Below, one piece after another: positions 45,408 through 63,140 of a stretch of DNA of 64,000 bases. The position numbers and the translations under genes are program-made. The notes below the pieces were generated by a model. That model had not been told where the DNA came from. It saw only the letters and a list, made by a program, of their open reading frames with translations, and searched no databases. The DNA is from Nanobdellota archaeon. Its GTDB lineage: Archaea > Nanobdellota > Nanobdellia > Pacearchaeales > GW2011-AR1. The stretch's first letter is position 1. The number at the start of each line of letters is the position of its first letter. The DNA lies in the NCBI GenBank assembly GCA_030611805.1, contig JAUWPB010000001.1, positions 24,765-88,764 of the forward strand, written 5' to 3'.

Positions 45408-46346
45408 ATGCCTACAAGAAAATCACCACGAAAAGGAAGTTTGCAGTTTTGGCCGAGAAAGCGGGCCACTAAATTTTTGCCTAGAGTGAACTGGGATGCG
45501 ATTGATTCTGGAAAAAACCTCAAGGGATTTATTTGTTACAAAGCAGGCATGGCTTCAGGATATGTAAAAGACAATACTCCTGATTCTATGACTAAGGGGA
45601 AGAAAATCATTATTCCTTTGACAATTCTTGAATGCCCTCCTTTAAAGATATTCTCTGTCAGATTTTATAAAAACGGCAAGGTTAGTAAAGATGTGCTGAC
45701 AGAAAATCTGGACAAAGAACTGAAAAGAAAACTAAAGCTTCCGAAAAAAAGCAAGGGAAAAATTGAGGATGTCAAAGATTATGATGATGTTAAAGTTATA
45801 GGCTATTCTATTGTTAAAAAAACCGGGTTGAAAAAGAAACCAGATTTGATTGAGATTGGACTTGCTGGAAGTGTTGAAGAAAAAATTAATTTTATTAAAG
45901 AAAATTTAAGCAAGGAAATTTCTGTTCTGGATGTTTTTGAAAAAGGTCAGCTTGTTGATTTAAGGGGTTTGACAAAAGGAAAGGGTTTTTCAGGACCTGT
46001 AAAAAGATTTGGAATTAAGCTGAAATTCCACAAGTCAGAAAAAGGTCGTAGAAGACCGGGAAGCCTGGGACCATGGCATCCTGCAAGAGTTATTTTCAGA
46101 GTTCCTATGGCAGGACAGCTTGGGATGTTTACAAGAGTTATTTATAATAATAAAATAATTGACATCGGAAAATCATCTGATAAGGAATTACAAAATATTA
46201 AAAATTATGGGAATATTAAAACAGATTATATTCTTGTGAGAGGCTCTATTCAGGGTTCTGCAAAAAGGCAATTAATTATCACGCATCCCTTAAGACAAAC
46301 TAAAAAACAAATTAAAAAAGATTATGAATTATTGGAGATAAGATAA
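45408..46346 (+). CDS. rpl3: Ribosomal protein L3
   Basis: PRKGSLQFWPRKRA... Confidence 0.9.
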   Translation: MPTRKSPRKGSLQFWPRKRATKFLPRVNWDAIDSGKNLKGFICYKAGMASGYVKDNTPDSMTKGKKIIIPLTILECPPLKIFSVRFYKNGKVSKDVLTENLDKELKRKLKLPKKSKGKIEDVKDYDDVKVIGYSIVKKTGLKKKPDLIEIGLAGSVEEKINFIKENLSKEISVLDVFEKGQLVDLRGLTKGKGFSGPVKRFGIKLKFHKSEKGRRRPGSLGPWHPARVIFRVPMAGQLGMFTRVIYNNKIIDIGKSSDKELQNIKNYGNIKTDYILVRGSIQGSAKRQLIITHPLRQTKKQIKKDYELLEIR

Positions 46347-46681
46347 TGAAATATCAAGTTAATAAAAAAACGCTAGATGAAGGAATTCATGAACAAATAA
46401 AAATGGAAATTAATAATTTAGAAAGTAATTTAATAAAACATGTTAATTTTGTGAAAGGCCACATAAGAATAGAAAATGAGATAGAACTTGGAAAAGGCAA
46501 AGAAATAAAAGAATTAGCTATTAAAAATTTTCCACATCATGTAATTGGGATTGGAAATCGTCTTGCATGTTTAGAGAGTTTTGGTTATTTTTTGGATGTA
46601 AAAGAAGTATTCAAATATCAAAAAGTGGTTTCAGAGATAATAAATAATTGCTTGGAGGACCTTAAAAATTATCAGCTATAA
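46346..46681 (+). CDS. Hypothetical protein intercalated between rpl3 and rpl4
   Basis: ORF track; stop/start overlaps with both neighbours. Confidence 0.4.
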   Translation: MKYQVNKKTLDEGIHEQIKMEINNLESNLIKHVNFVKGHIRIENEIELGKGKEIKELAIKNFPHHVIGIGNRLACLESFGYFLDVKEVFKYQKVVSEIINNCLEDLKNYQL

Positions 46682-46682
46682 A

Positions 46683-47525
46683 ATGAAAGCAAATATATTA
46701 ACAATTGAAGGGAAAAAGAAAACTGCAATTGATTTGCCTAAATGTTTTTCTGCTGAGATTAGGGAAGATATTGTTGCGAAGGTTTTAGAAGCTAAAAAAA
46801 CAAAACAGCCTTATGCACCGTCGCCTGTGGCAGGAAAGCAACATTCAGCAAGTGGAAAAATAAAACACAGGAGACATGTTTGGAAAACTCATTATGGCCA
46901 GGGGATTTCAAGAATTCCAAGAAAAATAATTTCAAAAAAAGGGAGCAGATTTAATTGGATAGGTGCTGAAGTTTCTTCAACTCGTGGAGGGAGAAGAGCC
47001 CACCCTCCAAAAATTCTTTCAATGATTAATACTAAAAGAATAAATAAAAAGGAATTGAAAACTGCTTTAATTTCTGCAATAAGTGCAACAGCGAATGAAA
47101 AAGAGATGATTAAAAGATATGAAAGACTGAAAAATAAAAAGATAGATAATCTTCCATTAATTGTTGAACCAAAATTAGTTTCTCTGAAAACAAAAGATTT
47201 GATTTCAAGTTTGAAAAAAATTCTTGGCAAGGATTTGTTTGAATTGGCTTTGCAGAAAAAATCAGTTAGAGCAGGGAAGGGAAAATTAAGAGGAAGGAAA
47301 TACAAATCAAATGCAGGATTATTATTAGTCACCGGGAAAGATGAAAAATTAAAAACAAATGCTTTTGAAGTTGTTGAAGTTAAATTTTTAGGAGTTGCTG
47401 ATTTGGCGAGAGGAGGAGTTGGGAGATTGACTATTTATACTGAAGGTGCAATTAGAGAACTTGTAAACAAGTTCGATAGTTCGTCTAAAAGCCAAACTAA
47501 AGAATCTGGAGAAAAATTAAAATGA
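46683..47525 (+). CDS. rpl4: Ribosomal protein L4
   Basis: Archaeal/eukaryal L4 (L1e) N-terminal region. Confidence 0.85.
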   Translation: MKANILTIEGKKKTAIDLPKCFSAEIREDIVAKVLEAKKTKQPYAPSPVAGKQHSASGKIKHRRHVWKTHYGQGISRIPRKIISKKGSRFNWIGAEVSSTRGGRRAHPPKILSMINTKRINKKELKTALISAISATANEKEMIKRYERLKNKKIDNLPLIVEPKLVSLKTKDLISSLKKILGKDLFELALQKKSVRAGKGKLRGRKYKSNAGLLLVTGKDEKLKTNAFEVVEVKFLGVADLARGGVGRLTIYTEGAIRELVNKFDSSSKSQTKESGEKLK

Positions 47526-48175
47526 TAGTATTAGACATGGAATCAAGTGGATTGGATACAGGAAAATGCGGAATCTGGCAAATAGGTGCAATAGAATTAG
47601 AAAATCCTGAAAACCAGTTTTTAGAGGAAGCGCGAATTGATGATGAAGACCAAGTAGAAGAAGGAGCATTAAAGGTTACAGGAAAAACAGAAGAAGAATT
47701 AAGAGACAAAAATAAACAATCACAAAAACAGTTGATTTTAAATTTTATGGAATGGGCAAAAACTTGTAAAACAAAATTAATTGTAGGGCACAATGTAGGG
47801 TGGGATTTTTTCTTTATGAGAAATAAATGTTGCAAATATAATGTGGTAACTGAATTTATGGAGGTAGTAGGTCATAATGTAATAGATACTTATTCTGTTG
47901 CACAAATAAAATATTTAAAAATAAATGGAAATTTTGCATTTAAAGAAAATGGTCTAGGGAAAATGGGTCTTAAAAGAGTATTAAAATTATGTGGATTAAA
48001 AGATAATAGAATGCATTTAAATGATAAGGAAGAGGTAGATAATGAAGGAACTCCTCACAACGCACTTGAAGATGCTAAACTTACAGCAGAATGTTTTTCA
48101 AGATTAATATATGGGAAAAATCTTTTTCCAGAATATGCTGAATATGAAATACCAGAGGAGTTGAAAAAAGAATGA
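47522..48175 (+). CDS. DEDDh 3'-5' exonuclease (DnaQ-like) embedded in r-protein operon
   Basis: Exo I VLDMESSGLD, Exo II GHNVGWDFFFM, Exo III HNALEDAKLTAECF. Confidence 0.7.
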   Translation: MIVLDMESSGLDTGKCGIWQIGAIELENPENQFLEEARIDDEDQVEEGALKVTGKTEEELRDKNKQSQKQLILNFMEWAKTCKTKLIVGHNVGWDFFFMRNKCCKYNVVTEFMEVVGHNVIDTYSVAQIKYLKINGNFAFKENGLGKMGLKRVLKLCGLKDNRMHLNDKEEVDNEGTPHNALEDAKLTAECFSRLIYGKNLFPEYAEYEIPEELKKE

Positions 48176-48293
48176 AAGCAAATCATAGATTTTCATTCAT
48201 CCAAACACAAAGAAAGGTGTTACAGAGAAAGGGATCATTCCCTATAGGGGCGTCAGCATCTTTGATGCAAGTAAATATCGGGGGTTATTTTTA

Positions 48294-48530
48294 ATGAAAC
48301 CAATAGTAACTGAAAAAGCTGTTATGATGATTGAAGCACAGAATATTTTGACATTTGAAACAGGAAAAGATAAAACAAAAACTGAAATAAAAAAAGAAAT
48401 TGAAGAATTGTTTGACGTGAAAGTTGAAAAAGTGAGGAGTTTGATTAGAAGAAATAAAAAATGTGTTTATGTTAAATTAAATAAAAAATTTCCAGCTATT
48501 GATGTGGCGACGAAGCTGGGGTTAATGTAA
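48294..48530 (+). CDS. rpl23: Ribosomal protein L23
   Basis: Size, position before rpl2, sequence pattern. Confidence 0.8.
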   Translation: MKPIVTEKAVMMIEAQNILTFETGKDKTKTEIKKEIEELFDVKVEKVRSLIRRNKKCVYVKLNKKFPAIDVATKLGLM

Positions 48531-48531
48531 A

Positions 48532-49230
48532 ATGGGAAAAAGAATAATTCAACAGCGAAGAGGAAGGGGAACTCACACTTATAAAGTTCGGAGAAAGGCA
48601 TTTAGATTCAAGCTTCAGTATCCACCAAGACTTTCCGGAGAAGGAAGTGTGATTAAACTTTTTAATTCAGCAGGACATAGTGCTCCTTTGGCAAAAATAA
48701 AATATAGTGACGGAACTTTTTTTGTGCCTGCGTTTAAAGGCATGGTTGAAGGACAGAAAATAAGTTTTGAAGATGCAAAAATAAATAAAGGAAATATTAT
48801 GAAATTGAAAGACATTCCAGTAAAAACTAAAATTTATAATATTGAATCAAGACCAGGGGATGGGGGGATGTTCATAAAGAGTGCTGGAAATTCTGCAGTT
48901 ATTAATAAAATTATTGGGAAAGATGTTTTTGTTTTAATGCCCTCAAAAAAAGAAAAAAAGTTTAATCAAAATTGCCGGGCAATTATTGGCATAGCTGCTG
49001 GAGCAGGCAGACTTGATAAACCTGTTATTAAAGCCGGGAAAAAGCATCATATTAAAAAGTCAAAAAGTAAATTATGGCCAAGGACATCTGCAGTAAAGAT
49101 GAATGTAATAGACCATCCTTTTGGTTCAGGAAGGGCGAAGAATGTGAAGAGCAAAATTGCCAAGAGAAATGCGCCTCCTGGAAGAAAAGTTGGATTAATA
49201 AGGCCTAGAAGAACAGGTAAAAAGAAATAA
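48532..49230 (+). CDS. rpl2: Ribosomal protein L2
   Basis: RRGRGTHTYKVRRK...GAGRLDKPVIKAG. Confidence 0.9.
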   Translation: MGKRIIQQRRGRGTHTYKVRRKAFRFKLQYPPRLSGEGSVIKLFNSAGHSAPLAKIKYSDGTFFVPAFKGMVEGQKISFEDAKINKGNIMKLKDIPVKTKIYNIESRPGDGGMFIKSAGNSAVINKIIGKDVFVLMPSKKEKKFNQNCRAIIGIAAGAGRLDKPVIKAGKKHHIKKSKSKLWPRTSAVKMNVIDHPFGSGRAKNVKSKIAKRNAPPGRKVGLIRPRRTGKKK

Positions 49231-49231
49231 A

Positions 49232-49627
49232 ATGGAAATACAAAAAAAACAATTTGCATACAAAGGCAAGGCAATTGAAGAATTAAAATCTTTAGATGTA
49301 AGAGAATTTGCAAAGTTAGTCAGGTCAAGGCAGAGAAGAACTATTTTGAGGAATTTCCAAAAGGTTGAGGATTTTATTAATCGGAGCAAGATAAAAATTG
49401 AAAGAAAAAAACCAATAAAAACTCATCAAAGAGATTTGGTTGTTGTTCCGGAGATGGTTGGATGGAAAATATTCATTTATAATGGAAATAAATTTGTTCC
49501 TGTGGAAGTTACAGGAGAAATGCTTGGACATAAATTTGGAGAGTTTGCCCCGACAAGAGCAAGGGTAAAGCATGGAAAAACCGGGGTAGGTGCAACTAAA
49601 GGAACTAAACACAAGGCTAAAAAATGA
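49232..49627 (+). CDS. rps19: Ribosomal protein S19
   Basis: NGNKFVPVEVTGEMLGHKFGEFAPTR. Confidence 0.9.
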   Translation: MEIQKKQFAYKGKAIEELKSLDVREFAKLVRSRQRRTILRNFQKVEDFINRSKIKIERKKPIKTHQRDLVVVPEMVGWKIFIYNGNKFVPVEVTGEMLGHKFGEFAPTRARVKHGKTGVGATKGTKHKAKK

Positions 49628-49968
49628 TAACTAATAAAATAACTGGGAAAAAATATGAAAAAGGTATTGGATTTTGTAGAGAAGAAAATATGCCAACTGC
49701 CCAAGAGATTATTTCCTGCTCTCCTTCTAAAATAACCACAATTCATTTTGGTGGTCAAAACATAACATATGAAGAATTAATTGAAAAAAATATTCTTCCT
49801 TATTTTGAAAAAGAAGCGATTAATTCTTGCGTTGTTTTTCCTCTTCAAACACCTTTTCCTATATGTGAACCCGCATCAACACAAGAATTAGAGATTATCA
49901 AAAGGAATCTCTCAAATAAAGGATTAGATGTTTTACTATATGATAAAACATTTGCAATTAGATTATAA
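49624..49968 (+). CDS. Hypothetical Cys-rich protein intercalated between rps19 and rpl22
   Basis: ORF track; overlaps rps19 stop. Confidence 0.4.
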   Translation: MITNKITGKKYEKGIGFCREENMPTAQEIISCSPSKITTIHFGGQNITYEELIEKNILPYFEKEAINSCVVFPLQTPFPICEPASTQELEIIKRNLSNKGLDVLLYDKTFAIRL

Positions 49969-49969
49969 A

Positions 49970-50728
49970 ATGGGAATTAATACAGAAAAACCAATGACAA
50001 AACAAGAATCAAAAAAACAAGGAGTAGTTGGTGCTATAAAACAAAAAATTGATTTGGCTAAAGTACCTGTTGAAAAGAAAACAGATGAAAAAAAAGATAA
50101 GCAATTAACTACTGGGAAAGTCTCTGAACCAAAAGATGAAGTAAAACCTGATTATAAAAACTTGGCACCCAAGGGTGTACACCACCGAGTAGGTCCAGAG
50201 GAAGGAGGTGCGAGTACCTCTTCGCCAAGTAGGTCTGAAAGAAGCCCTTCTGTAAAAGAAGATATAAACATAGAGGACAAAAAAAAGAAACCAATACAAA
50301 AAAAACCTGTTGTTAAAAAAACCGAGGCTGTTGTAAATGCAAGGAGTCTTCCAATCTCAACAAAATATTCTATGGCGATTTGCAGATTTATTAAAAACAA
50401 GAAAATTGGGAAAGCAATAGTTGATTTAGGACAAGTTATTACGAAGAAAAAAGCAGTACCAATGAAAGGCGAGATTCCTCATAAAAAAGGCAGAGGAATG
50501 ATGTCAGGAAGATATCCTAAAAAAGCTTCAGAGCATTTTATTGAAATATTGAAAAGCCTGCAAGCAAACGCTAATGCTAATGAAATAGAGAATCCGAGAA
50601 TTGTTGAAGCTGTTGCAAATCTTGCCTCAAGACCTTATGGGAGATTTGGAAGAATAAGGAAAAAGCGAACTCATGTTAAGTTAGTTGCTAAAAATAAATT
50701 AAATAAAGAAAAGGAGAATAGAAAATGA
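49970..50728 (+). CDS. rpl22: Ribosomal protein L22 with ~120-aa low-complexity N-terminal extension
   Basis: C-terminal ARSLPISTKYSMAICRFIKNKKIGKAIVDL...; start chosen at MGINTEK (track start 49928 overlaps upstream gene). Confidence 0.8.
   Translation: MGINTEKPMTKQESKKQGVVGAIKQKIDLAKVPVEKKTDEKKDKQLTTGKVSEPKDEVKPDYKNLAPKGVHHRVGPEEGGASTSSPSRSERSPSVKEDINIEDKKKKPIQKKPVVKKTEAVVNARSLPISTKYSMAICRFIKNKKIGKAIVDLGQVITKKKAVPMKGEIPHKKGRGMMSGRYPKKASEHFIEILKSLQANANANEIENPRIVEAVANLASRPYGRFGRIRKKRTHVKLVAKNKLNKEKENRK
50165..50180 (+). repeat. GC-rich 16-nt element GCACCCAAGGGTGTAC inside rpl22 (copy 1)
   Basis: Identical 16-mer at 51656..51671 inside rps3; both translate to APKGV. Confidence 0.7.
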
Positions 50729-51027
50729 GTTTAATTAATGTTAAAACAAAAATATATTGTAATTTTAAAATTGATGGGTATGTTGCTTGCTTAGAATATA
50801 CTGCCAATGAATCTCAAAAAGAAATTGGATTATTGGTTCCAAAAGAATTAAGGAGAAAAGACCAAGCTACTTCAAATGCTCTTAAATATTTATTCACTCA
50901 AAAAAAAGAAAGTCCTTTTATTGTAAATATAGGGGAACTAGAAGAAATTCTTTCTCCAAATTTTGTAGAAGATATTAAAAAATCAAATTTACCTAAAAAA
51001 ATTAAACAAAATATTCAAGGAATTTAA
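50725..51027 (+). CDS. Hypothetical protein intercalated between rpl22 and rps3
   Basis: ORF track; overlapping stops/starts. Confidence 0.4.
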   Translation: MSLINVKTKIYCNFKIDGYVACLEYTANESQKEIGLLVPKELRRKDQATSNALKYLFTQKKESPFIVNIGELEEILSPNFVEDIKKSNLPKKIKQNIQGI

Positions 51028-51028
51028 T

Positions 51029-51751
51029 ATGGAAGAGAAAAAAACAGTTCAGTTTAAGAAAGAAGAATTTGCGATTAAGGAATCTATAAAAAATGCACTT
51101 GGAAAGGGAAAAGTGAGCAAGGTTATTATAGAGTATACGCCGGTGGGAGAAAAAATAATTATCTCTACTCATAAGCCAGGGTTGGTAATTGGAAGAAAGG
51201 GTGTGAAAATCGGGGAACTAACTCAAATGTTAAGAACTGAATTTAAACTTGAAAATCCTCATATTGAAATAGATGAAATAATGCAACCAGAACTTGACGC
51301 CCAGATAATGGCAGATGAAATTGCTCTTTCGTTGGAAAGATTCGGGCCTTTGAGGTTTAAGGTTACTGCATACAGAACATTGCAAAAAATAATCAAGGCA
51401 GGGGCTTTGGGAGTTGAAATAAGATTAAATGGGAAACTTCCGAGTGCAAGAGCAAGGTCGTGGAGATTTGCACAAGGATATTTAAAGAAAACAGGGGACA
51501 GTGCAAAGGTTGTTGACAGGGCGCAATCAAGAGCACAGACAAAACCAGGAACTGTGGGAGTGAAAGTGAGTATCTTGTCTCCAGATGTTGAATTAAAAGA
51601 TAGAATCAAGATTGACGACGAACTTATAAAAAAATTAAAGGAAAATTCAGAAGTTGCACCCAAGGGTGTACCCCCAAGTACTGGATTAGGGGGCAAAGAA
51701 AAACCAAAAACCAAAAAAGTAATTAAAAAAGTAAAGAAGGATAAAAATTAA
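51029..51751 (+). CDS. rps3: Ribosomal protein S3
   Basis: KH domain IIISTHKPGLVIGRKGVKIGEL. Confidence 0.9.
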   Translation: MEEKKTVQFKKEEFAIKESIKNALGKGKVSKVIIEYTPVGEKIIISTHKPGLVIGRKGVKIGELTQMLRTEFKLENPHIEIDEIMQPELDAQIMADEIALSLERFGPLRFKVTAYRTLQKIIKAGALGVEIRLNGKLPSARARSWRFAQGYLKKTGDSAKVVDRAQSRAQTKPGTVGVKVSILSPDVELKDRIKIDDELIKKLKENSEVAPKGVPPSTGLGGKEKPKTKKVIKKVKKDKN

Positions 51752-51752
51752 A

Positions 51753-51962
51753 ATGGCAACTTTAAAATTCAAAGACATACAAAAATTAAGCAAACAAGAA
51801 AGAGAAAAGAAATTTAAGGAATTGAAAATGGAATTGATTAAATCAAAAGTTAAATCCTCAAAAACAGGGAGTTCAAAGATTAAGGAAATTAAAAAAATAA
51901 TTGCCAGAATACTCACGCTCAAAAAACACAATGGAAATATGTCCAAAATGTGGCTTGCCTGA
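51753..51962 (+). CDS. rpl29: Ribosomal protein L29
   Basis: MATLKFKDIQKLSKQEREKKFKELKMELIK. Confidence 0.8.
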   Translation: MATLKFKDIQKLSKQEREKKFKELKMELIKSKVKSSKTGSSKIKEIKKIIARILTLKKHNGNMSKMWLA

Positions 51963-52230
51963 GCAAGCATGTGTATGTGAACAGATTGTTAAAAGTTCGC
52001 AAAGAGTAAAGATAACGACAGACAGAAAGCGATATGGGAAAATCGTGACTGTTGTTACAGGATTCGAGAGTGGAATCAATGTGAAGAAAATCGCAAAGGC
52101 TCTGAAAAACGAGTTGGCCTGCGGTGGGACTTACAAGGGTAACATGATTGAACTCCAAGGAGACCACAGAAAGAAGATAAAAGAACTGCTGGTCAAGTTG
52201 GGGTTTGAGGAAGAATCAATCTCTGAATAA
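51901..52230 (+). CDS. eif1: Translation initiation factor aIF1 (SUI1)
   Basis: CPKCGLPEQACVCEQ...RKRYGKIVTVVTGFE...ELQGDHRKKIKELL; likely start at internal MEICPK (51931). Confidence 0.8.
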   Translation: MPEYSRSKNTMEICPKCGLPEQACVCEQIVKSSQRVKITTDRKRYGKIVTVVTGFESGINVKKIAKALKNELACGGTYKGNMIELQGDHRKKIKELLVKLGFEEESISE

Positions 52231-52260
52231 ACAAAAAGCATACACAAACAAAAAAATAAA

Positions 52261-52623
52261 ATGGAAAAAAAGAAAACAACAGAAGGAAAAATAGAGAAAA
52301 AATCAGAAGTAGTTGGAAATGTCTGCGATGACAGAAATTGCCATATCCATGGGAACTTAAAAACCAGAGGAAGAGTCTTTGAAGGAGAAGTTATCAGAAA
52401 GTTCCATAAGAGAATTACAATTGAATTTGAAAGAATGACTTATGTAAGAAAATATGAAAGATATAAAAAATCAAAAACAAAAATTCATGCACGGCTTCCT
52501 GTTTGTATGGAAGATGAAATCCATATTGGTGATTTAATAAAAGTGCAGGAATGCAGACCTTTGAGCAAGATAATTCATTTTGTGGTTATTGAGAAAATTA
52601 AATCAGGAGAAAATGGGAAATGA
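52261..52623 (+). CDS. rps17: Ribosomal protein S17
   Basis: Size/position and OB-fold pattern. Confidence 0.85.
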   Translation: MEKKKTTEGKIEKKSEVVGNVCDDRNCHIHGNLKTRGRVFEGEVIRKFHKRITIEFERMTYVRKYERYKKSKTKIHARLPVCMEDEIHIGDLIKVQECRPLSKIIHFVVIEKIKSGENGK

Positions 52624-53021: not shown

Positions 53022-53022
53022 A

Positions 53023-55606: not shown

Positions 55607-55607
55607 A

Positions 55608-55772: not shown

Positions 55773-55773
55773 A

Positions 55774-56025
55774 ATGGAAATAACAAATATGGATAAAAAA
55801 TTACAACAAGAATATCAGAGAGCATATACAGAAGATCTTAGAAGATGTCTTTTATTTACAAGAACGCGTGTTCCTATAGAAGAAGTTAGTACAGACACAA
55901 TGAAAGCTAATATACAATGTGCAAGAGAATCTTATGAAAAAATACCTGATAAACAAGCAGTTTCACTTTTATTAGGGGATTTAAATCAACTTGAAAGAAA
56001 ATATGGTGCGGAGGCTACAAAATGA
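55774..56025 (+). CDS. Hypothetical protein between rps14 and rps8
   Basis: ORF track; stop overlaps rps8 start. Confidence 0.4.
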   Translation: MEITNMDKKLQQEYQRAYTEDLRRCLLFTRTRVPIEEVSTDTMKANIQCARESYEKIPDKQAVSLLLGDLNQLERKYGAEATK

Positions 56026-56402
56026 GTCAAGACATAGTTGCTGATGCTTTGAATATGATAAGAAATGCCAAGAAAGCGAGAAAAGAAATTGTAAAGATAA
56101 ATCGGATTTCAAATTTGTTGATTGAGATTTTAAAGATAATGAAACAAGAAGGTGCAATAAAGAAATATAAAATTAACAGCAAGGAAAAATATGTTGAGAT
56201 TACAATCGGCGAGTTGTCAGAATGCAAGGCGATAAAACCGCGGTTTAGTGTTGATAAAACCCAGATTGAAAAATACCGAAGAAGATATCTGCCTGCGAGA
56301 AATTTAGGGACTATGATTATTTCAACTAACAAAGGTTTGACAACTCATGAAGAAACTCAAAAAGAACAAACAGGGGGATGCTTGATTGCATATTTTTATT
56401 AA
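56022..56402 (+). CDS. rps8: Ribosomal protein S8
   Basis: MSQDIVADALNMIRNAKKARKEIV. Confidence 0.9.
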   Translation: MSQDIVADALNMIRNAKKARKEIVKINRISNLLIEILKIMKQEGAIKKYKINSKEKYVEITIGELSECKAIKPRFSVDKTQIEKYRRRYLPARNLGTMIISTNKGLTTHEETQKEQTGGCLIAYFY

Positions 56403-56403
56403 A

Positions 56404-56754
56404 ATGGAACAAACAATACACCCTCACGAAATGATGGCAGACTTTGTAAATAAATATGAATCCCGAATAAAACCTGTGCTTCAAAAAGGAAAAAATATTA
56501 ATGATTTGATTGGCTTAATATTTGAACAAGATTTAAGATATAAAGAAATGGGAAGTTTAACAATTCAACCAAACCCAAAAGCTCAGGCTCATTATCGTCT
56601 CGCGATTAATTTTCTTGGACAATTAACAATGAAAACGCTGACTCAAGATCTTTTTAAATTTGGAATTGAAAGGGTAGAAGCACAAGTTAAAAAGTTAAAC
56701 ACAATATTGCATGAAGATTCACATTATAAATTATATCGAGAGGAATCAAGATGA
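56404..56754 (+). CDS. Hypothetical protein intercalated between rps8 and rpl6
   Basis: ORF track (start moved to MEQTIHP after rps8 stop). Confidence 0.4.
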   Translation: MEQTIHPHEMMADFVNKYESRIKPVLQKGKNINDLIGLIFEQDLRYKEMGSLTIQPNPKAQAHYRLAINFLGQLTMKTLTQDLFKFGIERVEAQVKKLNTILHEDSHYKLYREESR

Positions 56755-57293
56755 AAAAAGAATTATTTCAAACAATTGAAATTCCAGAAGGAGTGGAAGC
56801 AAGTATAGACTGGGGTAGTGTAACTGTGAAAGGTAAAGAAGGGGAAAATAAAAGAACATTTAATCTTGGGAAATTAGATTTTGAGAAAAAAGAAAACAAA
56901 ATAATTATTGGAAATAAAAAGGCAACAAAAACTGAAAAGAAAATGATGAACACAATTGCGTCTCATATAAATAATATGATTAAAGGTGTGCAGGAAAAAT
57001 TTGAATACAAATTGAAAGTATGTTTTAGCCATTTTCCTATGAATGTTAAAATAGAAGGCAATGAAGCGGTAATAAAGAATTTTTTAGGAGAAAAAATCCC
57101 AAGAAAAGTGAGAATTCCTGAAGGCACTGAAGTTGTAATTGATAAGGATATTATCACTGTCAAATCTACTGATAAAGAATTAGGGGGACAGGCTGCAGCA
57201 AATTTTGAAACAGCTACGAGAATTATTGGCAAAGACAGAAGGGTTTTCCAGGACGGGATTTATATTACAAGTAAATGTGGGAGGGAAATTTAA
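56751..57293 (+). CDS. rpl6: Ribosomal protein L6
   Basis: Two-domain uL6 pattern. Confidence 0.85.
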   Translation: MKKELFQTIEIPEGVEASIDWGSVTVKGKEGENKRTFNLGKLDFEKKENKIIIGNKKATKTEKKMMNTIASHINNMIKGVQEKFEYKLKVCFSHFPMNVKIEGNEAVIKNFLGEKIPRKVRIPEGTEVVIDKDIITVKSTDKELGGQAAANFETATRIIGKDRRVFQDGIYITSKCGREI

Positions 57294-57294
57294 A

Positions 57295-57729
57295 ATGGTT
57301 AAATTTTTAAGAAGAAGCTGGGACAGATATTCAAAACTTGGAAAAGGAAGAAAGAAAAAACAGGTTTGGAGAAAGCCAAGAGGCAGAGATAATAAAATGA
57401 GAGAAAAAAGAAAAGGATATCCTGTAGTAGTGAGCATAGGATATAAAAAACCTGGAAAGAAGATTGATGAGAAAAAATTAATTATTATGAATGTTAGAGA
57501 TTTGAACAAAGTTAAAGAAAATAAAATTGTAATAATTGGGAAAGTTGGAACAAAGAAAAAAATAGAAATAGTTAAAAAAGCAAATGAAAAGAAAATTAAA
57601 ATTCATAATTTAAATGTTAAAAAATTTTTGAAGGAGTTAGAGAAGAAAGAAAAGAAAACAAAGGAGAAAGAAAACAAAAAACCAGAAAAGAAACCTGATA
57701 AAACTAAAAGCAAGGAGGAGAAAAAATGA
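57295..57729 (+). CDS. rpl32e: Ribosomal protein L32e with K-rich C-terminal extension
   Basis: MVKFLRRSWDRYSKLGKGRKKKQVWRKPRGRDNKMR; track start 57205 overlaps rpl6. Confidence 0.85.
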   Translation: MVKFLRRSWDRYSKLGKGRKKKQVWRKPRGRDNKMREKRKGYPVVVSIGYKKPGKKIDEKKLIIMNVRDLNKVKENKIVIIGKVGTKKKIEIVKKANEKKIKIHNLNVKKFLKELEKKEKKTKEKENKKPEKKPDKTKSKEEKK

Positions 57730-58133
57730 ACCTACGCAAGAAAAAAGAATTAGCTGTAAGGACTTTAAAAGTTGGAAAAGAAAGAATTGTTTTTTTGCAG
57801 TCAAGGTTAGAGGAAATAAAAGAAGCAATTACTAAACAAGATATTCGGGACTTGAAAAAAGAAGGAGGAATAATTGTAAAAGAAATTAAGGGAAGAAAAA
57901 AGATTAAGAAGGTGGGTAAAAAAAGAGGTCCTGGGAAAATAAGAAAAAAAGTTAATAAAAGAAAACAAGAATATGTTAAAATGACCAGAAAATTAAGGAA
58001 ATACACTGGTGAAATGAAAAAGCAAGGAAAATTATCTAAAGAAAATGTTGAAGATATTAAAAAGAAAATAAGAAACAGAATTTTTAGAAGCAAGGCACAT
58101 TTGAAAACTTATATTGGAGGATTGAAAAAATGA
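57726..58133 (+). CDS. rpl19e: Ribosomal protein L19e
   Basis: MNLRKKKELAVRTLKVGKERIVF. Confidence 0.85.
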   Translation: MNLRKKKELAVRTLKVGKERIVFLQSRLEEIKEAITKQDIRDLKKEGGIIVKEIKGRKKIKKVGKKRGPGKIRKKVNKRKQEYVKMTRKLRKYTGEMKKQGKLSKENVEDIKKKIRNRIFRSKAHLKTYIGGLKK

Positions 58134-58426
58134 AAATAGAAAATGAAATTAAATATATAGAAATCCGGAAAGACTGGGAAAAAGTAACCAGAGCTGATAA
58201 AGTGATTGCGAATGAGGGGCTTCAAGAAGGATTTTTCTTTGGAAAAAGATATCTCCCCCACTCTGGTACAAAGCTTATACAAAAAGAGTTCCCAATTTTA
58301 ATAAGAAGAGAAATAAATTCAATAATTGAGGATGTCGTTGGTGAAGCAATCATTGTCCATGATCAGGGAGTTTCAGGAGATTATGACAAATTAGATAAAT
58401 TTTTAAGAACGGAGTGTAATGCATAA
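58130..58426 (+). CDS. Hypothetical protein intercalated between rpl19e and rpl18
   Basis: ORF track; overlapping junction. Confidence 0.4.
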   Translation: MKIENEIKYIEIRKDWEKVTRADKVIANEGLQEGFFFGKRYLPHSGTKLIQKEFPILIRREINSIIEDVVGEAIIVHDQGVSGDYDKLDKFLRTECNA

Positions 58427-58428
58427 AA

Positions 58429-58923
58429 ATGAAAACATTAAAACGAAGAAGAAAAGAATGTAAAACAGATTACGGAAAAAGGATTAAATTGCTGAAAAGC
58501 GGGAAGCCAAGAATTGTTTTTAGAAGAACAAACAAGTATGTTATTGCACAATATGTAACAAGCAAAGAAGCGCAGGATAAAGTTGAAATAGGAATTAGTT
58601 CAAAAAACTTGTCAAAATATGGATGGTCAAAAGAATTTTCAGGGAGTTTAAAATCAACATCAGCATCATATCTTACAGGATTATTAATGGGTAAAAAAAT
58701 TATAAAACAAAAATTAAAAACCCCGATTGTTGATTTTGGGATGGCCAGAATATTGCATAAAACAAGGGTTTATGGTTTTTTGAAAGGATTAATCGACGCG
58801 GGAATTGATATAAAATGTAAAAAAGAAGCTTTTCCAGGTGAAGATAGAATAAAAGGAAAACACATGAAAAAAGATTTTTCAAAAATATTTGAAGAAATTA
58901 AATCTAAAATAGAAAAAGAATAA
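58429..58923 (+). CDS. rpl18: Ribosomal protein L18
   Basis: GKPRIVFRRTNKYVIAQYV. Confidence 0.85.
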   Translation: MKTLKRRRKECKTDYGKRIKLLKSGKPRIVFRRTNKYVIAQYVTSKEAQDKVEIGISSKNLSKYGWSKEFSGSLKSTSASYLTGLLMGKKIIKQKLKTPIVDFGMARILHKTRVYGFLKGLIDAGIDIKCKKEAFPGEDRIKGKHMKKDFSKIFEEIKSKIEKE

Positions 58924-59756
58924 TGGAAGAAAAAATAAATACAAGTTCGGGAAAAGATGAATATGCAGAAAAACCTGAAGAAGTTTTAGAAGAATCAGAA
59001 TTAAAAGAACTTGAAGAAATGAAAAAAGAAGTTGAAAAAAAGGTAAATGGAACAGATAAAGAAAGTTATAGGAATATGAGCCGGGCTGAAAGAGAGAAAA
59101 AAGCTCAGCAAGATGCAATATCTTCCTGGGAACCGAAAACAAAACTTGGGCAAGAAGTAAAAGATGGAAAAATAAAAAGTATTGATGAGATTTTAGACAG
59201 CAAAAGAAAAATTCTTGAAGCAGAAATTGTTGATTCGTTGATTGAGGTTAAATCTGAATTGAGCTCTATTGGTCAGTCAAAAGGAAAGTTTGGAGGCGGA
59301 AAAAGAAGAGCATGGAGACAAACGCAAAGAAAAACAAAAGAAGGAAATGTCCCAAGTTTTTCAACGCTTGCTATTGTTGGTGATGAAAATGGACATATTG
59401 GAATTGGCTCTGGAAAAGCTAAAGAAACTTTGCCAGCGAGAGACAAGGCCATAAGAAAAGCTAAATTAAATCTCATGAAAATAAAAAGAGCTTGTGCAGG
59501 ATTTGATTGCTCTTGTTCAGAATTACATTCAATCCCATTTAAAATAACCGGAAAATGCGGTAGTGTTAAAGTAACTTTAATCCCTGCACCACAAGGGACA
59601 GGGTTAGTTGTTGGAAGAGAATTAAGAAAGATATTAAAACTTGCAGGAATTAAAGATGTTTATAGCAGAACCTCGGGGAGAAAAAGGACTACTTTTAATT
59701 TAGTTAAATCTTGTATTGATGCTTTGAAGAAAACAAATGTGGAGGCAGAAAAATGA
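58923..59756 (+). CDS. rps5: Ribosomal protein S5 with acidic N-terminal extension
   Basis: GGGKRRAWRQTQRKTKEGNVPSFSTLAIVGDENGHIGIGSGKAKE. Confidence 0.9.
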   Translation: MEEKINTSSGKDEYAEKPEEVLEESELKELEEMKKEVEKKVNGTDKESYRNMSRAEREKKAQQDAISSWEPKTKLGQEVKDGKIKSIDEILDSKRKILEAEIVDSLIEVKSELSSIGQSKGKFGGGKRRAWRQTQRKTKEGNVPSFSTLAIVGDENGHIGIGSGKAKETLPARDKAIRKAKLNLMKIKRACAGFDCSCSELHSIPFKITGKCGSVKVTLIPAPQGTGLVVGRELRKILKLAGIKDVYSRTSGRKRTTFNLVKSCIDALKKTNVEAEK

Positions 59757-60046
59757 CAAGCATAGTTAAGTTAAAAGATGGAAGTAATTTAGTAACAGGA
59801 TTAGTATATATTCTAAAGGGAGAGAATAAACAAGTGGAAGCAATTTTCACAGATTGTAATAAAAAGAATCTTGAATTTTTAGAAAAGTCTCCACAAGGTT
59901 TTGTAAAATATTTAGTAAAAGAAAATTCAATAGAAATGGTCAATTCAAGAATAGGTGTTGGATACAGACGTCTAAAAGTGAAGGATAATTTAAAGGGGCA
60001 AAAAATACCTAAAGAACTAATAAAAAATTTGGAGGATTTTAAATGA
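59753..60046 (+). CDS. Hypothetical protein intercalated between rps5 and rpl30
   Basis: ORF track; overlapping junctions. Confidence 0.4.
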   Translation: MTSIVKLKDGSNLVTGLVYILKGENKQVEAIFTDCNKKNLEFLEKSPQGFVKYLVKENSIEMVNSRIGVGYRRLKVKDNLKGQKIPKELIKNLEDFK

Positions 60047-60468
60047 TAGCAATAATCAGAATTCATGGAATGGTGAAAATAAAAAAAAGACTAGAGGAAA
60101 CTTTGCAAAGATTGAGATTGAAGAGGAAGTATAGTTGTGTTGTTTTAGTTAAACCTAAGAAAGAGCAATTAGGGATGATAAAAAATATTAAGAATTTTGT
60201 GGCTTTTGGAGAAATTAACAAAGAAACTTTTGAGAAGTTAATTGAACAGCGTGGACAATTAATAAATAAGAAAAAGAAAATTAATTTTAAAGAAGTTGTT
60301 AAAGAATTAGAAAAAGGAAAGAAATATGAGGAATTAAACTTAAAACCATTTTTTAGATTGCATCCTCCTCGTAAAGGGATTGATAGTAAAAAACATTTTG
60401 GTGTTAGAAAAGGAGTCTTAGGAAATAACAAGGAAAAAATAAATGAATTAATTGGGAGGATGTTGTGA
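60043..60468 (+). CDS. rpl30: Ribosomal protein L30
   Basis: MIAIIRIHGMVKIKKRLEETLQRLRLKRK; C-terminus ...LIGRML. Confidence 0.85.
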   Translation: MIAIIRIHGMVKIKKRLEETLQRLRLKRKYSCVVLVKPKKEQLGMIKNIKNFVAFGEINKETFEKLIEQRGQLINKKKKINFKEVVKELEKGKKYEELNLKPFFRLHPPRKGIDSKKHFGVRKGVLGNNKEKINELIGRML

Positions 60469-60473
60469 GATGG
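60451..60473 (+). repeat. Repeated junction cassette GGGAGGATGTTGTGA-n-ATGG (copy 1; encodes G-R-M-L-stop + SD + ATG)
   Basis: Near-identical copies at 60682..60703 and 60969..60987. Confidence 0.7.
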
Positions 60474-60697
60474 TAGAAAAAAAATTAATAATAAAAGGAT
60501 TAGAATACTATACATCACATAGAGGTGGAACTGTTGTGGATACAGAAAATAGAAAAACAAGAACGATAGTTAAACAAGTTTATGACACAAGTTTTTTTGG
60601 AATAAGAAAAGTTTTAAGAGAATCAAAAATCATTACAGAGATAAGAGATAACGCAGAATATTCTGTTTATAATCAATTAATGGGGAGGATGTTGTGA
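60470..60697 (+). CDS. Hypothetical small protein 1 of 3 between rpl30 and rpl15 (C-terminus ...MGRML)
   Basis: ATG 1 nt after rpl30 TGA; track used upstream TTG. Confidence 0.4.
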   Translation: MVEKKLIIKGLEYYTSHRGGTVVDTENRKTRTIVKQVYDTSFFGIRKVLRESKIITEIRDNAEYSVYNQLMGRML

Positions 60698-60698
60698 A

Positions 60699-60983
60699 AT
60701 GGGAAAGGTTGAATTAAACAAAATGCAAGATTATAAAGTTGAATTATATCCTGGACAAGTTATATTGGAAGGGAAATACCTGAATCAATTAGAAGATACA
60801 CATGTTTTTGAACATGAAAAAAAAGGAGAAAAACATTACATATTAGTAGAAGGCCACTGGATGATTAAAGAAGAAGATATTATAACTCACAAAAATATTT
60901 CTTCTTTTCCAATCAAAGTTATTCCTGAAAAAAAGGCTTATCTGGTTAAAGGTTTACAGAAATTAATAGGGGGAATGTTGTAA
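60699..60983 (+). CDS. Hypothetical small protein 2 of 3 (C-terminus ...LIGGML)
   Basis: ORF track. Confidence 0.4.
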   Translation: MGKVELNKMQDYKVELYPGQVILEGKYLNQLEDTHVFEHEKKGEKHYILVEGHWMIKEEDIITHKNISSFPIKVIPEKKAYLVKGLQKLIGGML

Positions 60984-61198
60984 TGGGAAAAATAACTTAT
61001 CAAACAATAGTTGGAGGAGAAAAAATAGCAATTTTTAGAGAAGGAGGAATTGTAGAAATTGGGCATAAAGAAAAACTAACAGGAGAATGTAAGTTAGATA
61101 CATACCACAAAATTGCCGGAGGATACAAAAAGGTTCTTACTCAAACAGCTGAAGAAGGGAGTGTTTTGTATAGAGAATTAATGAGGATTTCAAAATGA
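60983..61198 (+). CDS. Hypothetical small protein 3 of 3
   Basis: ORF track; taATG overlap. Confidence 0.4.
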   Translation: MGKITYQTIVGGEKIAIFREGGIVEIGHKEKLTGECKLDTYHKIAGGYKKVLTQTAEEGSVLYRELMRISK

Positions 61199-61698
61199 TA
61201 AAAACACACAAACGAACAAAATCATCAAAAATGCATGGAAGAGGTAGAGGGACTCATGGTTATGGAGAAAGAAAGAAACATAAAAAATCAGGGCATAAAG
61301 GTGGAAAAGGAATGTCTGGAAGCGGGAAGAGAGCAGACCATAAAAAAACTCTTGTGTTAAAAAAATATGGACATAAGTATTTTGGAAAACAGGGAATAAC
61401 AAGCAGGGGAACAAAAAGAGATATTAGAAAAAGAATTAATCTTCAACAAATTGAATTAAATCTTGAAAAGTATGGGCAGAAAAAAAATGATGTGTGGGAA
61501 ATTAATTTAAAAAATTATAAAATTCTTGGAACTGGCGAGGTTAAAAATAAATTAATTATAAATGCTAAAGAAGCTTCTAAATCAGCGATTGAGAAAGTGA
61601 AAAAAGCTGGGGGCGAAATAATAATTAAGAAAGGGCACACAAAGGTTGAAAAAGTTAAAGATAATGCTAAAGAGGAGAAAGAGGTTATTAAAAAATAA
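61195..61698 (+). CDS. rpl15: Ribosomal protein L15
   Basis: KMHGRGRGTHGYGERKKHKKSGHKGGKG. Confidence 0.85.
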   Translation: MIKTHKRTKSSKMHGRGRGTHGYGERKKHKKSGHKGGKGMSGSGKRADHKKTLVLKKYGHKYFGKQGITSRGTKRDIRKRINLQQIELNLEKYGQKKNDVWEINLKNYKILGTGEVKNKLIINAKEASKSAIEKVKKAGGEIIIKKGHTKVEKVKDNAKEEKEVIKK

Positions 61699-61700
61699 TC

Positions 61701-63140
61701 ATGGACTTAAGAAAAATATTTGATTTTATCCCGGAAGTTAGAAAACCAGATGAGAAAAAACTCGGCTTTAATGTAAAATTAAAATGGACTTTGATTATTT
61801 TAGTTTCGTTTTTTGTCCTTGCTAATATTTCTCTTTTTGGTTTGTCGCATAATGCTCTTGAGAGATTTGAGTATCTGGCTATAATCCTTGGAACAGATTT
61901 TGGGAGTATTATTTCATTGGGTATCGGACCAATTGTAATGGCATCTATTATTTTGCAGTTGCTTACTGGCTCAGGGATATTAAATATTGATACTGCAACT
62001 GTGGAAGGGAAGCGGTTTTTTGGCGGGCTGCAAAAATTATTGGTTTTCTTTTTTATAGTTTTTGAGGCAATGGTTTATGTTTTAATGCAGGGGCTTCAGG
62101 CAATGCCGGGACTTGCCCCATTACTTATTTTTCAGTTAATACTCGGGGGTCTGGCAATTTTTTACATGAGTGAAGTCTGCGAAAAATGGGGCTTTGGCTC
62201 TGGTGTTAGTTTGTTTATAGGAGCAGGTGTTAGCTGGAGAATATTCACAAGTGCTCTTCAATTTGTAAACCAACAAGGACGGAATTGTTTACTTGATTTT
62301 AAAGGAACACCATGTTCTGGGAAAATTTTAGTTATGATTCAATCAATAATAAATAAATATCCAATAGAATTTGTATCTGCACTTGGAGCAATTTTAGCGA
62401 CTATCCTAATTTTCTTAATAGTTGTCTGGGCACAATCATTAAAAGTTGAACTCCCTTTATCGTATGGAAGAATCAGAGGGTATGGTGTTAAATGGCCTTT
62501 GTCTTTTTTTTATGCTTCTGTTATCCCGGTAATTTTGTGTGCTGCTTTAGTTGCCAATATCCAGCTCTTTGGAGGAATTATTGAAAATGCCGCAGCTCCG
62601 TGTTTTATAGAAGAAGGCGTCTGCACTGGCATGGCAAAATTTGCTTCACACCTGGGTTTTTTAGGGCATTTTGTTGAGGGGCAGCCGATTTCTGGTTTAG
62701 CCTTTTGGATGGGTTCAACTAATCTCTTAGAATTATTTATCAGAGGAGGATTTATGTTTAGGTATTTATTGCAAGGTTTCACACATATTTTATTTTTTGT
62801 ATTTTTCTGTACAATCTTCTCTATATTCTGGGTTAAAACTTCGGGCATGGATTCAAAAGCACAGGCACATAAGATTGTTTCATCTGGATTGCAGGTAGCT
62901 GGATTCAGACAAGATGAAAGAATTTTGGAGAGCATTCTTGACAGGTATATTATGCCGTTGACAGTTATGGGCGGAGCAGCAATAGGATTGCTCGCTGCAT
63001 CCACTGATTTGCTTGGGGCATTGGTTTCAGGAACAGCGATATTATTAGTAATCATGATTATGTTCCAGTTTTATCAAAACATTGCGCAACAACACCAGAT
63101 GGATATGGCTCCTGCGATGAAGAAATTTATGCAAGGATAA
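61701..63140 (+). CDS. secY: Preprotein translocase subunit SecY
   Basis: 10-TM protein, position after rpl15. Confidence 0.9.
   Translation: MDLRKIFDFIPEVRKPDEKKLGFNVKLKWTLIILVSFFVLANISLFGLSHNALERFEYLAIILGTDFGSIISLGIGPIVMASIILQLLTGSGILNIDTATVEGKRFFGGLQKLLVFFFIVFEAMVYVLMQGLQAMPGLAPLLIFQLILGGLAIFYMSEVCEKWGFGSGVSLFIGAGVSWRIFTSALQFVNQQGRNCLLDFKGTPCSGKILVMIQSIINKYPIEFVSALGAILATILIFLIVVWAQSLKVELPLSYGRIRGYGVKWPLSFFYASVIPVILCAALVANIQLFGGIIENAAAPCFIEEGVCTGMAKFASHLGFLGHFVEGQPISGLAFWMGSTNLLELFIRGGFMFRYLLQGFTHILFFVFFCTIFSIFWVKTSGMDSKAQAHKIVSSGLQVAGFRQDERILESILDRYIMPLTVMGGAAIGLLAASTDLLGALVSGTAILLVIMIMFQFYQNIAQQHQMDMAPAMKKFMQG

Follow-up and report, generated by a model that had tools for sequence, protein, structure and literature searches.

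The ribosomal protein (r-protein) superoperon of a Nanobdellota archaeon, running from L3 to SecY on the + strand (positions 45408-63140) of a 64,000-nt stretch of contig JAUWPB010000001.1 (hereafter the window, ~30% GC), was interleaved with 13 open reading frames (ORFs) of 54-151 aa (inserts i1 to i13), a 217-aa DEDDh exonuclease and a 40-codon mini-ORF, the inserts occupying about half of the gene junctions. Comparison with related operons showed turnover of such genes in precise units of one ORF, by gain, loss and relocation, with a minority of families moving between junctions. On balance, the inserts are probably translationally coupled accessory gene cassettes that ride the operon and are turned over by recombination at its junctions. 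They would belong to a reservoir of small cassettes that evolve fast, are for the most part lineage-specific and lodge exactly between the cistrons of the superoperon in Pacearchaeota-type DPANN archaea. L3, L32e and similar names denote r-proteins, while three-digit labels (e.g., L163) denote related loci.

Single-ORF turnover was seen between operons 96-99.7% identical. One ORF was present or absent at L24/S4e (214 nt) and at L30/L15 (341 nt) between L107 and L110/L122, and at L22/S3 (220 nt) and S14/S8 (336 nt) between L153 and L155, while a 14-codon mini-ORF distinguished L145 from L147. The borders of these insertions or deletions (indels) displayed direct repeats of 6-13 nt that included a start codon (TAAAATG, AATGGCA or AAAATGA). 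The L24/S4e insert was found in L107 (9073-9288) and L018 only, whereas overall similarity paired L107 with L110 and L018 with L122, an incongruence that implies recurrent precise loss or recombination.

Over 12.3 kb, the sister strain L163 and the window shared 99.76% identity, which fell to 97.5% in S3 and 88-90% in L22, where the divergent stretch covered L163 460-1146 and window 49966-50718. This strain lacked i3 and harbored a canonical mini-ORF in its place (58 nt, L163 1155-1211). The 3' end of i2 was present, followed by an extra ORF before L22, and two extra ORFs (164 and 105 aa) were located between S3 and L29. As the sharp drop in identity coincided with the changed cassette content, the L22 stretch looks like a recombination tract, with DNA possibly imported through the conserved flanks.

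Related operons were retrieved by an L5 scan, which provided 80 species-level genomes labelled Pacearchaeota, Woesearchaeota and Nanoarchaeota (69-84% L5 identity) and 80 metagenome contigs. Junctions with >150 nt of extra DNA were considered occupied, and the comparison covered 72 non-redundant operons in which 20 or more junctions could be scored. Occupied junctions ranged from 0 to 10 per operon (median 2), with at least one in 83% of the operons. Ten were counted in the window by the same criterion (11 with i2), 10 being the maximum of the clade. The first-pass annotation had described this density as highly unusual: it does stand at the extreme of the clade, but junction ORFs were widespread among the DPANN operons compared and are a property of the whole clade rather than a peculiarity of one genome. 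The most frequently occupied junctions were L30/L15 (36%), L4/L23 (28%), L3/L4 (27%), L14/L24 (23%), L15/SecY (22%) and S17/L14 (19%), while L29/SUI1, SUI1/S17, L6/L32e and S4e/L5 were cold. The window's own inserts were almost never found by tblastn in the L5-retrieved relatives. Close relatives differed greatly, and some loci at 80% L5 identity had no insert at all.

The 349 distinct junction ORFs of the survey (median 96 aa) fell into 259 BLAST clusters, including 219 singletons. Among pairs significant at 1e-5, 92% came from the same junction (6% expected), and some families were stable in position; one of ~155 aa, for instance, occupied L19e/L18 in 10 loci, and another S17/L14 in 6. Some 30 of the significant pairs joined different junctions, with alignments extending from the first to the last residue, which indicates that the mobile unit is the ORF itself. 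These included a 164-aa ORF that was 62% identical between S3/L29 of the sister strain and L3/L4 of L099, the DUF523 gene (2-thiouracil desulfurase) at L14/L24 and L30/L15, and MazG at L32e/L19e and L30/L15. In L027, two paralogues were encoded inside one operon. Pfam matches of the relatives' inserts (MazG, 2-thiour_desulf, DUF5680) displayed a heterogeneous cargo.

Successive insertions could be followed at L30/L15, where the window carried i11, i12 and i13. The C-terminus of L30 (...INELIxRML*) was kept in all relatives, and in the window the ~28-30 nt of its 3' end and junction (AATTAATNGGGAGGATGTTGTGANATGG) recurred at the ends of i11 (direct repeat pair 60442-60488 and 60671-60717) and i12, with a degraded version closing i13. 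Three stages were represented among the loci: L30-i12-L15 in L170-172, L30-i11-i12-L15 in L168/169 and L30-i11-i12-i13-L15 in the window. The C-terminus of i12 read KLIENDKN* in the nearer species (ancestral) and the L30-like KLIGGML* in the window, exactly where i13 had been added. The latter was missing from L168 and L170-L172 and showed no homology to i11 or i12. Shared ends, unrelated bodies and intermediate stages together argue that unrelated ORFs were inserted one after the other, each with a copy of the junction. The earlier observation that no insert resembles another was thus valid for the protein bodies, but not for the 3' junctions of ~28-30 nt shared by L30, i11 and i12.

A ~60-nt mini-ORF element was counted 78 times among 149 relatives, 51 of which carried it. 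All copies followed the operon strand and together they occupied no fewer than 12 junction types, chiefly S17/L14 and L5/S14. Its sequence (ATGAAAGCAAAT-NNN-ARATTTTCATTCATCC-N8-12-GGAGGTTATTTTGAATGA) encoded MKANQRFSFIQ..GGYFE*, and its first codons tended to be those with which the downstream gene begins. Hardly any variation was seen at 4-fold degenerate sites despite synonymous divergence (dS) >0.5 in the neighbouring genes, which points to nucleotide-level constraint or to a recent spread of the element. Weak stems, in which both start codons pair with a UUUUCAUUCAU tract, are suggested by RNAalifold and may occlude both starts; the two 'CAU' tracts of the element are predicted to be able to pair with both start codons. 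No Rfam family matched the element and it was not found in IMG/VR. The window copy (48166-48294) was expanded and contained the 40-codon mini-ORF (48172-48294) at the exonuclease/L23 junction, a fifteenth element in addition to those listed by the first-pass annotation.

The inserts displayed the signals of coding genes tightly embedded in an operon. Stop/start spacing ranged from -4 to +2 nt almost throughout, with ATGA overlaps or TAA(A)ATG, in agreement with the tight junctions noted earlier. A GGAGG-like (Shine-Dalgarno) motif was located 5-14 nt upstream, inside the preceding gene, for about 10 of the 13 inserts, and the same start signals were handed by each insert to the following gene. 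When six frames were scored with a codon model built from the 34 long ORFs of the window, the annotated frame was the best of six for every insert, and per-codon log-likelihood margins and GC contents at the three codon positions (GC1>GC2>GC3) were indistinguishable from those of r-proteins. Identical DNA was recovered from at least four independent assemblies (Logan SRR12623520/21 and SRR14865926; ENA ERZ4220366). Given the in-frame codon signal and this recurrence, the inserts are neither chance ORFs nor assembly artefacts; as stop codons are frequent at 30% GC, frames of 54-151 codons exactly filling the gaps would also be very unlikely by chance. Recoding or read-through fusing the inserts to their neighbours was rejected, the inserts lying in different frames, each with its own ATG.

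These features allow a scenario for cassette expression and turnover to be proposed. The operon's own transcription and translational coupling would drive the inserts, each cassette starting on or beside the previous stop, usually behind a Shine-Dalgarno motif in the 3' end of the previous gene, and passing these signals on to its successor, which would preserve coupling along the operon. Turnover may proceed through illegitimate or microhomology recombination at the A-rich, ATG-containing junction (TAAAATG, AAAATGA), sometimes copying up to ~28 nt. Spread between lineages would rely on homologous recombination, with conserved r-protein genes as arms.

The first-pass annotation had offered two readings of the inserts, a set of ribosome-associated factors or selfish cargo of a highly expressed operon. 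Cargo fits much better, based on the patchy distribution, presence/absence between strains, moves between junctions, heterogeneous families, non-basic composition and relaxed constraint. The qualifier "selfish" was not retained, as no mobility gene, terminal inverted repeat or attC-like site was found in the operon. Ratios of nonsynonymous to synonymous divergence (dN/dS) were below 1.

By family match, composition and distribution, the inserts are not (core) ribosomal proteins. R-proteins are strongly basic and conserved in the clade, while the inserts ranged from mildly acidic through neutral to mildly basic (median isoelectric point of 7.0 versus 10.2 for the flanking r-proteins; lysine plus arginine content of 16% versus 24.5%) and were missing from most of the 149 related loci. 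Pfam was searched with all 13 inserts, and NCBIfam, PHROG and PADLOC with 10 of them (all except i6, i11 and i13); no meaningful match was obtained in any of these scans, including to r-protein families (Pfam and NCBIfam for the 10, Pfam alone for i6, i11 and i13). In 90%-identity clusters built from ~15 billion proteins, the inserts were singletons or doubletons. A word-indexed search of 5.8 billion proteins with i1 returned only i1 itself, and HMMER over 1.84 billion cluster representatives returned for i5 a single other cluster, at 70% identity and from the same junction (S4e/L5). Degraded copies of neighbouring r-proteins or of each other were considered as a source of the inserts and rejected (Smith-Waterman z of at most ~3.8 against shuffles over ~500 comparisons), as was homology between inserts (hhalign probabilities <1%, with only junction nucleotides shared).

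Homologues were obtained from contigs of closer species (L167-L172), reached through the i12 and i5 searches. In L167, L168 and L170, each homologue kept the junction that the insert occupies in the window. L170 shared i6, i8, i10 and i12 with the window and lacked i5, i7, i9, i11 and i13; L168 shared i9, i10, i11 and i12 and lacked i13; the short contig L167 shared i5. Identity to the window was 63% for i6 in L170 (58% in L104, also at S14/S8), 52% for i8 in L170 (34% in L015/L115, also at S8/L6), 71% for i9 and 62% for i11 in L168, and 41% and 29% for i10 in L168 and L170, where 108-aa ORFs occupied S5/L30. More distant similarities were weak: i1 had homologues at L3/L4 in five relatives (a family of six loci), and i4 a relative in L152 at another junction, L32e/L19e (35% identity, E 4e-5).

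Nei-Gojobori dN/dS values, each from single pairs, were 0.28-0.34 for i12, 0.29 for i9, 0.41 for i6, 0.41-0.59 for i10, 0.53 for i5 (0.05 for L5), 0.63 for i8 and 0.76 for i11, while r-proteins in the same pairs ranged from 0.02 to 0.28. Constraint on the inserts thus appears to be weak, yet genuine in i9 and i12 at least. Values below 1 in six or seven inserts argue that at least several encode useful proteins and, under weak purifying selection, probably do something for the cell. Across five homologues, i12 had 39 invariant columns; AlphaFold2 with a 5-sequence alignment predicted a small beta-barrel with a C-terminal helix (predicted local distance difference test score, pLDDT, 79.5; predicted template modelling score 0.74). 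Its fold matches were generic (Foldseek to PC4, E 0.2, below usual significance). Single-sequence prediction of i5 was uninformative (pLDDT 45).

The DEDDh exonuclease noted earlier at L4/L23 was recovered by Pfam (PF00929, RNase_T, residues 2-192, E 1.3e-12), with DnaQ/PolC exonucleases and Cas2-DEDDh as PDB relatives. Its translation contains the motifs DxE (LDMES), D (GWDFF) and H-x4-D (HNALED), and on this basis ORF 47522-48175 is assigned to the DEDDh (RNase T/DnaQ-like) exonucleases. In 17-18 relatives, the gene also lay at L4/L23 (49-65% identity).

Such stable residents favour the possibility that the inserts are lineage-specific ribosome-associated, translation or assembly factors serving ribosome specialisation or protection. 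The exonuclease and the L19e/L18 and S17/L14 families keep their positions, all i5 and i12 homologues found across billions of proteins came from the same junction, and dN/dS was below 1. Junction ORFs were also confined essentially to r-protein operons in the sampled DNA: after removal of contig-end artefacts, 2-3 of 2138 matches were left outside the operon span, about 25% of the sampled DNA being non-operon. This explanation is nevertheless unlikely, as the proteins are not basic like the RNA-binding r-proteins but neutral to acidic, are missing from most close relatives and are polymorphic between strains 96-99.8% identical. The same gene was seen at different junctions, the relatives' inserts include house-cleaning or metabolic enzymes (MazG, 2-thiouracil desulfurase, DUF5680), and the fold matches fell below usual significance.

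A dedicated mobile-cassette system acting at start-codon junctions (integron-like, IS200/605-PATE-like or mediated by a retro-element), with its enzyme encoded elsewhere and the ORFs and ~60-nt element as cargo or footprints, would account for the ORF-precise moves, for the junction duplications of up to ~28 nt, and for the strand-specific element, whose near-invariant 4-fold sites suggest recent spread. A reverse-transcriptase-associated RNA motif (RT-16) was also present in the same genome. The indels were flanked by direct repeats (6-13 nt; ~28 nt at L30/L15), as target-site duplications would be, but these repeats coincided with the shared junction consensus. We consider this system quite unlikely, because no conserved cassette end was observed: beyond Shine-Dalgarno, stop and start, insert ends had nothing in common, bodies and ends being mutually unrelated. 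A scan of 45300-63300 for terminal inverted repeats or attC-like structures returned only low-complexity chance pairs, none of them flanking an insert. Pfam detected no transposase or integrase domain in the operon ORFs, the rest of the window and genome not having been systematically scanned for integrase, and no HNH, GIY-YIG, LAGLIDADG or similar nuclease was found (Pfam for 13 inserts, PHROG for 10), the DEDDh exonuclease being the sole nuclease. None of the eight tested ORFs neighbouring the RT-16 match contained a reverse-transcriptase domain, no phage match was obtained for the 13 inserts by tblastn against 50,697 phage genomes, and neither the i12 profile nor the element matched IMG/VR. 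PADLOC gave no defence or toxin-antitoxin match for 10 inserts, which were mostly single rather than paired.

A wider proposal, also rather unlikely, is that Pacearchaeota-type DPANN archaea possess a new form of gene mobility, in which single ORFs move from start to stop between coupled junctions, preferentially in the r-protein superoperon, with the ~60-nt mini-ORF as the smallest unit and a dedicated enzyme or RNA-templated copying as a possible driver. If true, the most conserved operon would be a high-expression display rack for a hypervariable repertoire of small proteins.

The inserts could instead be non-functional filler, with a frame kept open only because an untranslated spacer would break coupling or cause polarity. 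The exact filling of each gap, with Shine-Dalgarno and start handed to the next gene, agrees with this, as do the extreme orphan status, the dN/dS values of i11 and i8, and the single-nucleotide polymorphisms between the window and L163 (6 nonsynonymous and 0 synonymous in inserts, 10 and 11 in other genes). Filler is improbable, however, since insert-free relatives work with direct junctions and need none, codon usage fully fits the frame, i9 and i12 evolve at dN/dS of ~0.3, i12 combines its invariant columns with a confident fold, and recognisable enzymes occur among the relatives' inserts. Finally, assembly or annotation artefacts (chimeric contigs of metagenome-assembled genomes, spurious ORFs in AT-rich spacers) are effectively refuted: although the whole data set is metagenomic, the sequence recurs in independent assemblies, the codon signal is in frame, homologues are kept at the same junction in other species, and open frames of this length are unexpected by chance.

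Several observations weigh against the interpretation of the inserts as recently exchanged cassettes, in addition to the single-pair basis of the dN/dS values. Twilight pairs of junction ORFs (1e-3 to 0.1) were enriched 3.5-fold for the same junction, suggesting that some orphans are diverged orthologues, and many may be old residents diverged past recognition rather than new arrivals. The exonuclease, the 155-aa L19e/L18 family and the i1 family could be translation-related. No donor copy outside the operon was found in the sampled non-operon DNA (~25%) or in the window's own 45 kb. The border repeats fit microhomology but do not prove the mechanism, as nearly all junctions share the consensus. 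The insert polymorphisms are few; consistent with relaxed constraint, they are also compatible with neutrality. Outside the operon, genes of at most 160 aa reached the same density (33 in 45 kb; 33 of the 64 genes predicted in window 1-45300) as the inserts within it (13 in 17.7 kb), and ~40% of co-directional junctions outside it were at most 6 nt apart or overlapping. Given this equal density, the operon may not be a special target; a flux of small genes may run through the whole genome and simply be easier to recognise here.

The gene map on which the analysis relied is given in Table 1. All long ORFs within 45408-63140 were on the + strand, in the canonical order of an archaeal S10-spc-type superoperon. 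Pfam and tblastn agreed with the first-pass order, L3-L4-L23-L2-S19-L22-S3-L29-aIF1(SUI1)-S17-L14-L24-S4e-L5-S14-S8-L6-L32e-L19e-L18-S5-L30-L15-SecY, and every ORF it listed was present at its coordinates on the + strand. Pfam on window ORFs identified L22, S5, SUI1 and a downstream EMC3/DUF106-like gene. Precomputed Pfam annotations of identical genes on public contigs covered S3, L29, S17, L14, L24, S4e, L5, S14, S8, L6, L32e, L19e, L18, S5, L30, L15 and SecY, and tblastn returned 60-80 related loci per r-protein. Starts were refined, most likely to 49970 for L22, 54873 for L5, 53023 for L24 and 57295 for L32e. The reported absence of Rpp29 was confirmed for the interval between L29 and S17.

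Table 1. Genes, inserts and mini-ORF copies of the superoperon (window positions unless a related locus is named)
Feature	Coordinates	Strand	Evidence or remark
L3 (uL3)	45408-46346	+	tblastn-conserved in 64 relatives
i1, 111 aa, L3/L4	46346-46681	+	no significant family match; frame-0 codon signal
L4 (uL4)	46683-47525	+	translation, tblastn
DEDDh 3'-5' exonuclease, 217 aa, L4/L23	47522-48175	+	Pfam RNase_T 1.3e-12
Mini-ORF, 40 codons	48172-48294	+	expanded copy of ~60-nt junction element (MKANxRFSFIQ...GGYF*); nhmmer 48166-48206, E 3.7e-8
L23	48294-48530	+	translation, tblastn
L2	48532-49230	+	translation, tblastn
S19	49232-49627	+	translation, tblastn
i2, 114 aa, S19/L22	49624-49968	+	no family match; frame-0 signal; singleton cluster
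L22 (uL22)	49970-50728	+	~110-aa K/E/P-rich N-terminal extension; Pfam Ribosomal_L22, residues 138-254 of 266-aa ORF
i3, 100 aa, L22/S3	50725-51027	+	no family match; frame-0 signal
S3	51029-51751	+	precomputed Pfam, tblastn
L29	51753-51962	+	precomputed Pfam, tblastn
aIF1/SUI1	51901 or 51931 to 52230	+	Pfam SUI1
S17	52261-52623	+	precomputed Pfam, tblastn
L14	52620-53021	+	precomputed Pfam, tblastn
L24	53023-53514	+	precomputed Pfam, tblastn
i4, 88 aa, L24/S4e	53511-53777	+	no family match; frame-0 signal
S4e	53765-54415	+	precomputed Pfam, tblastn
i5, 151 aa, S4e/L5	54415-54870	+	one other cluster at 70% identity
L5	54873-55376	+	scan of relatives, Pfam, tblastn
S14	55376-55606	+	precomputed Pfam, tblastn
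i6, 54 aa, S14/S8	55608-55772	+	same-junction homologues in L104, L170
i7, 83 aa, S14/S8	55774-56025	+	no family match; frame-0 signal strongest among small ORFs
S8	56022-56402	+	precomputed Pfam, tblastn
i8, 116 aa, S8/L6	56404-56754	+	same-junction homologues in L015/L115, L170
L6	56751-57293	+	precomputed Pfam, tblastn
L32e	57295-57729	+	precomputed Pfam, tblastn
L19e	57726-58133	+	precomputed Pfam, tblastn
i9, 98 aa, L19e/L18	58130-58426	+	homologue in L168
L18	58429-58923	+	precomputed Pfam
S5	58923-59756	+	N-terminal extension; Pfam S5 N- and C-terminal domains
i10, 97 aa, S5/L30	59753-60046	+	same-junction 108-aa ORFs in L168, L170
L30 (uL30)	60043-60468	+	C-terminus ...INELIGRML*; motif kept in all relatives
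i11, 75 aa, L30/L15	60470-60697	+	last ~28 nt copy L30 3' end and junction
i12, 94 aa, L30/L15	60699-60983	+	four homologues, all at L30/L15
i13, 71 aa, L30/L15	60983-61198	+	newest of three at L30/L15
L15	61195-61698	+	precomputed Pfam, tblastn
SecY	61701-63140	+	precomputed Pfam, tblastn
Further element copy, L049	6466-6525		
Further element copies, L013	8157-8216 and 10506-10565		

Several r-proteins carried long K/E-rich extensions of low complexity, located at the N-terminus of L22 (49970-50300, ~110 aa) and S5 (58923-59300) and at the C-terminus of L24 (53350-53514), L32e (57600-57729) and S3 (51650-51751), the S3 tail differing between the window and the sister strain. Upstream of L3, a 231-aa protein without Pfam match (44119-44814, + strand) was separated from the operon by a 96-aa ORF (44849-45139). 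It was found in 61 related loci in total, with 58-75% identity in the relatives checked, and is a position-stable neighbour of the operon.

Elsewhere in the window, FtsZ (17252-18358) was separated from Spt5 (14381-14845) and L11 (13717-14391) by three small ORFs of 91-103 aa on the - strand without Pfam match (16975-17250, 16659-16961 and 16335-16646) and by an uncharacterised ORF of 243 aa. FtsZ-SecE-Spt5-L11 appears to be a second conserved archaeal array invaded likewise. The Rfam RT-16 RNA match (RF03019; 15161-15320, - strand; 68.8 bits versus a gathering score of 50) was located between the 243-aa ORF (15434-16165) and the cluster of a putative SecE, Spt5 and L11.

R-protein operons are textbook examples of frozen gene order, and their genes serve as markers for binning and placing uncultured lineages. 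In one large DPANN clade, this operon tolerates and exchanges up to ~10 unrelated small genes. It offers an exactly scorable natural system for how new or foreign genes enter essential coupled operons without breakage, in which rates of birth, death and relocation of orphan genes can be measured, and raises the question of which small proteins an obligate symbiont expresses at r-protein levels. In practice, inserts alter operon length and can mislead synteny-based annotation or checks for contig chimeras. No paper describing junction ORFs in r-protein operons of DPANN archaea was found in the library searched, and such ORFs were not described in a survey of archaeal r-protein clusters (PMC10833476). 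Insertion of accessory genes into conserved operons is already known; its form in DPANN r-protein operons is rated as new.

The inserts resemble the morons of phages in that unrelated small genes stand exactly between conserved co-oriented genes, are present or absent among close relatives, take no part in the core function of the operon and form a heterogeneous cargo that includes MazG-type enzymes. Morons, which lie between conserved operon genes in lambdoid and other phages, are autonomous units with their own promoter and terminator. Judged from the spacing (-4 to +2 nt), neither would fit between the genes here, so that the inserts must use the operon transcript and translational coupling; moreover, their host is a cellular r-protein operon and they share no similarity with phage proteins.

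Integrons have reportedly been described in archaea in 2022. Like integron cassettes, the inserts are promoterless, co-oriented, mostly orphan small ORFs, presumably expressed from an upstream promoter and subject to rapid gain, loss and reshuffling of single ORFs. Unlike them, they display no attC-like imperfect inverted repeats at their ends (45300-63300), no IntI was seen in the operon ORFs, and they are spread among essential genes rather than collected in one array at attI.

As presumably co-transcribed passengers of the same superoperon, the inserts are comparable to the known non-ribosomal members of S10-spc (aIF1/SUI1, Rpp29, SecY, Adk, Cmk and DUF106/EMC3-like proteins), of which SUI1, SecY and the EMC3-like gene were present here. 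Those passengers are ancient, fixed in position and Archaea-wide, while the inserts are lineage- or strain-specific and relocating. In bacterial and archaeal r-protein operons, translationally coupled overlapping cistrons (ATGA/TAATG) express fixed members. The inserts share this junction architecture and presumably the same re-initiation-based expression, but here the architecture appears to be a landing and excision point for variable genes. Finally, as for the orphan genes and small-protein "dark matter" of DPANN and Candidate Phyla Radiation (CPR) genomes, homologues were restricted to very close relatives and the genes are small and fast-evolving; unlike those orphans, their placement in the most conserved gene array allows gain, loss and relocation to be scored junction by junction.

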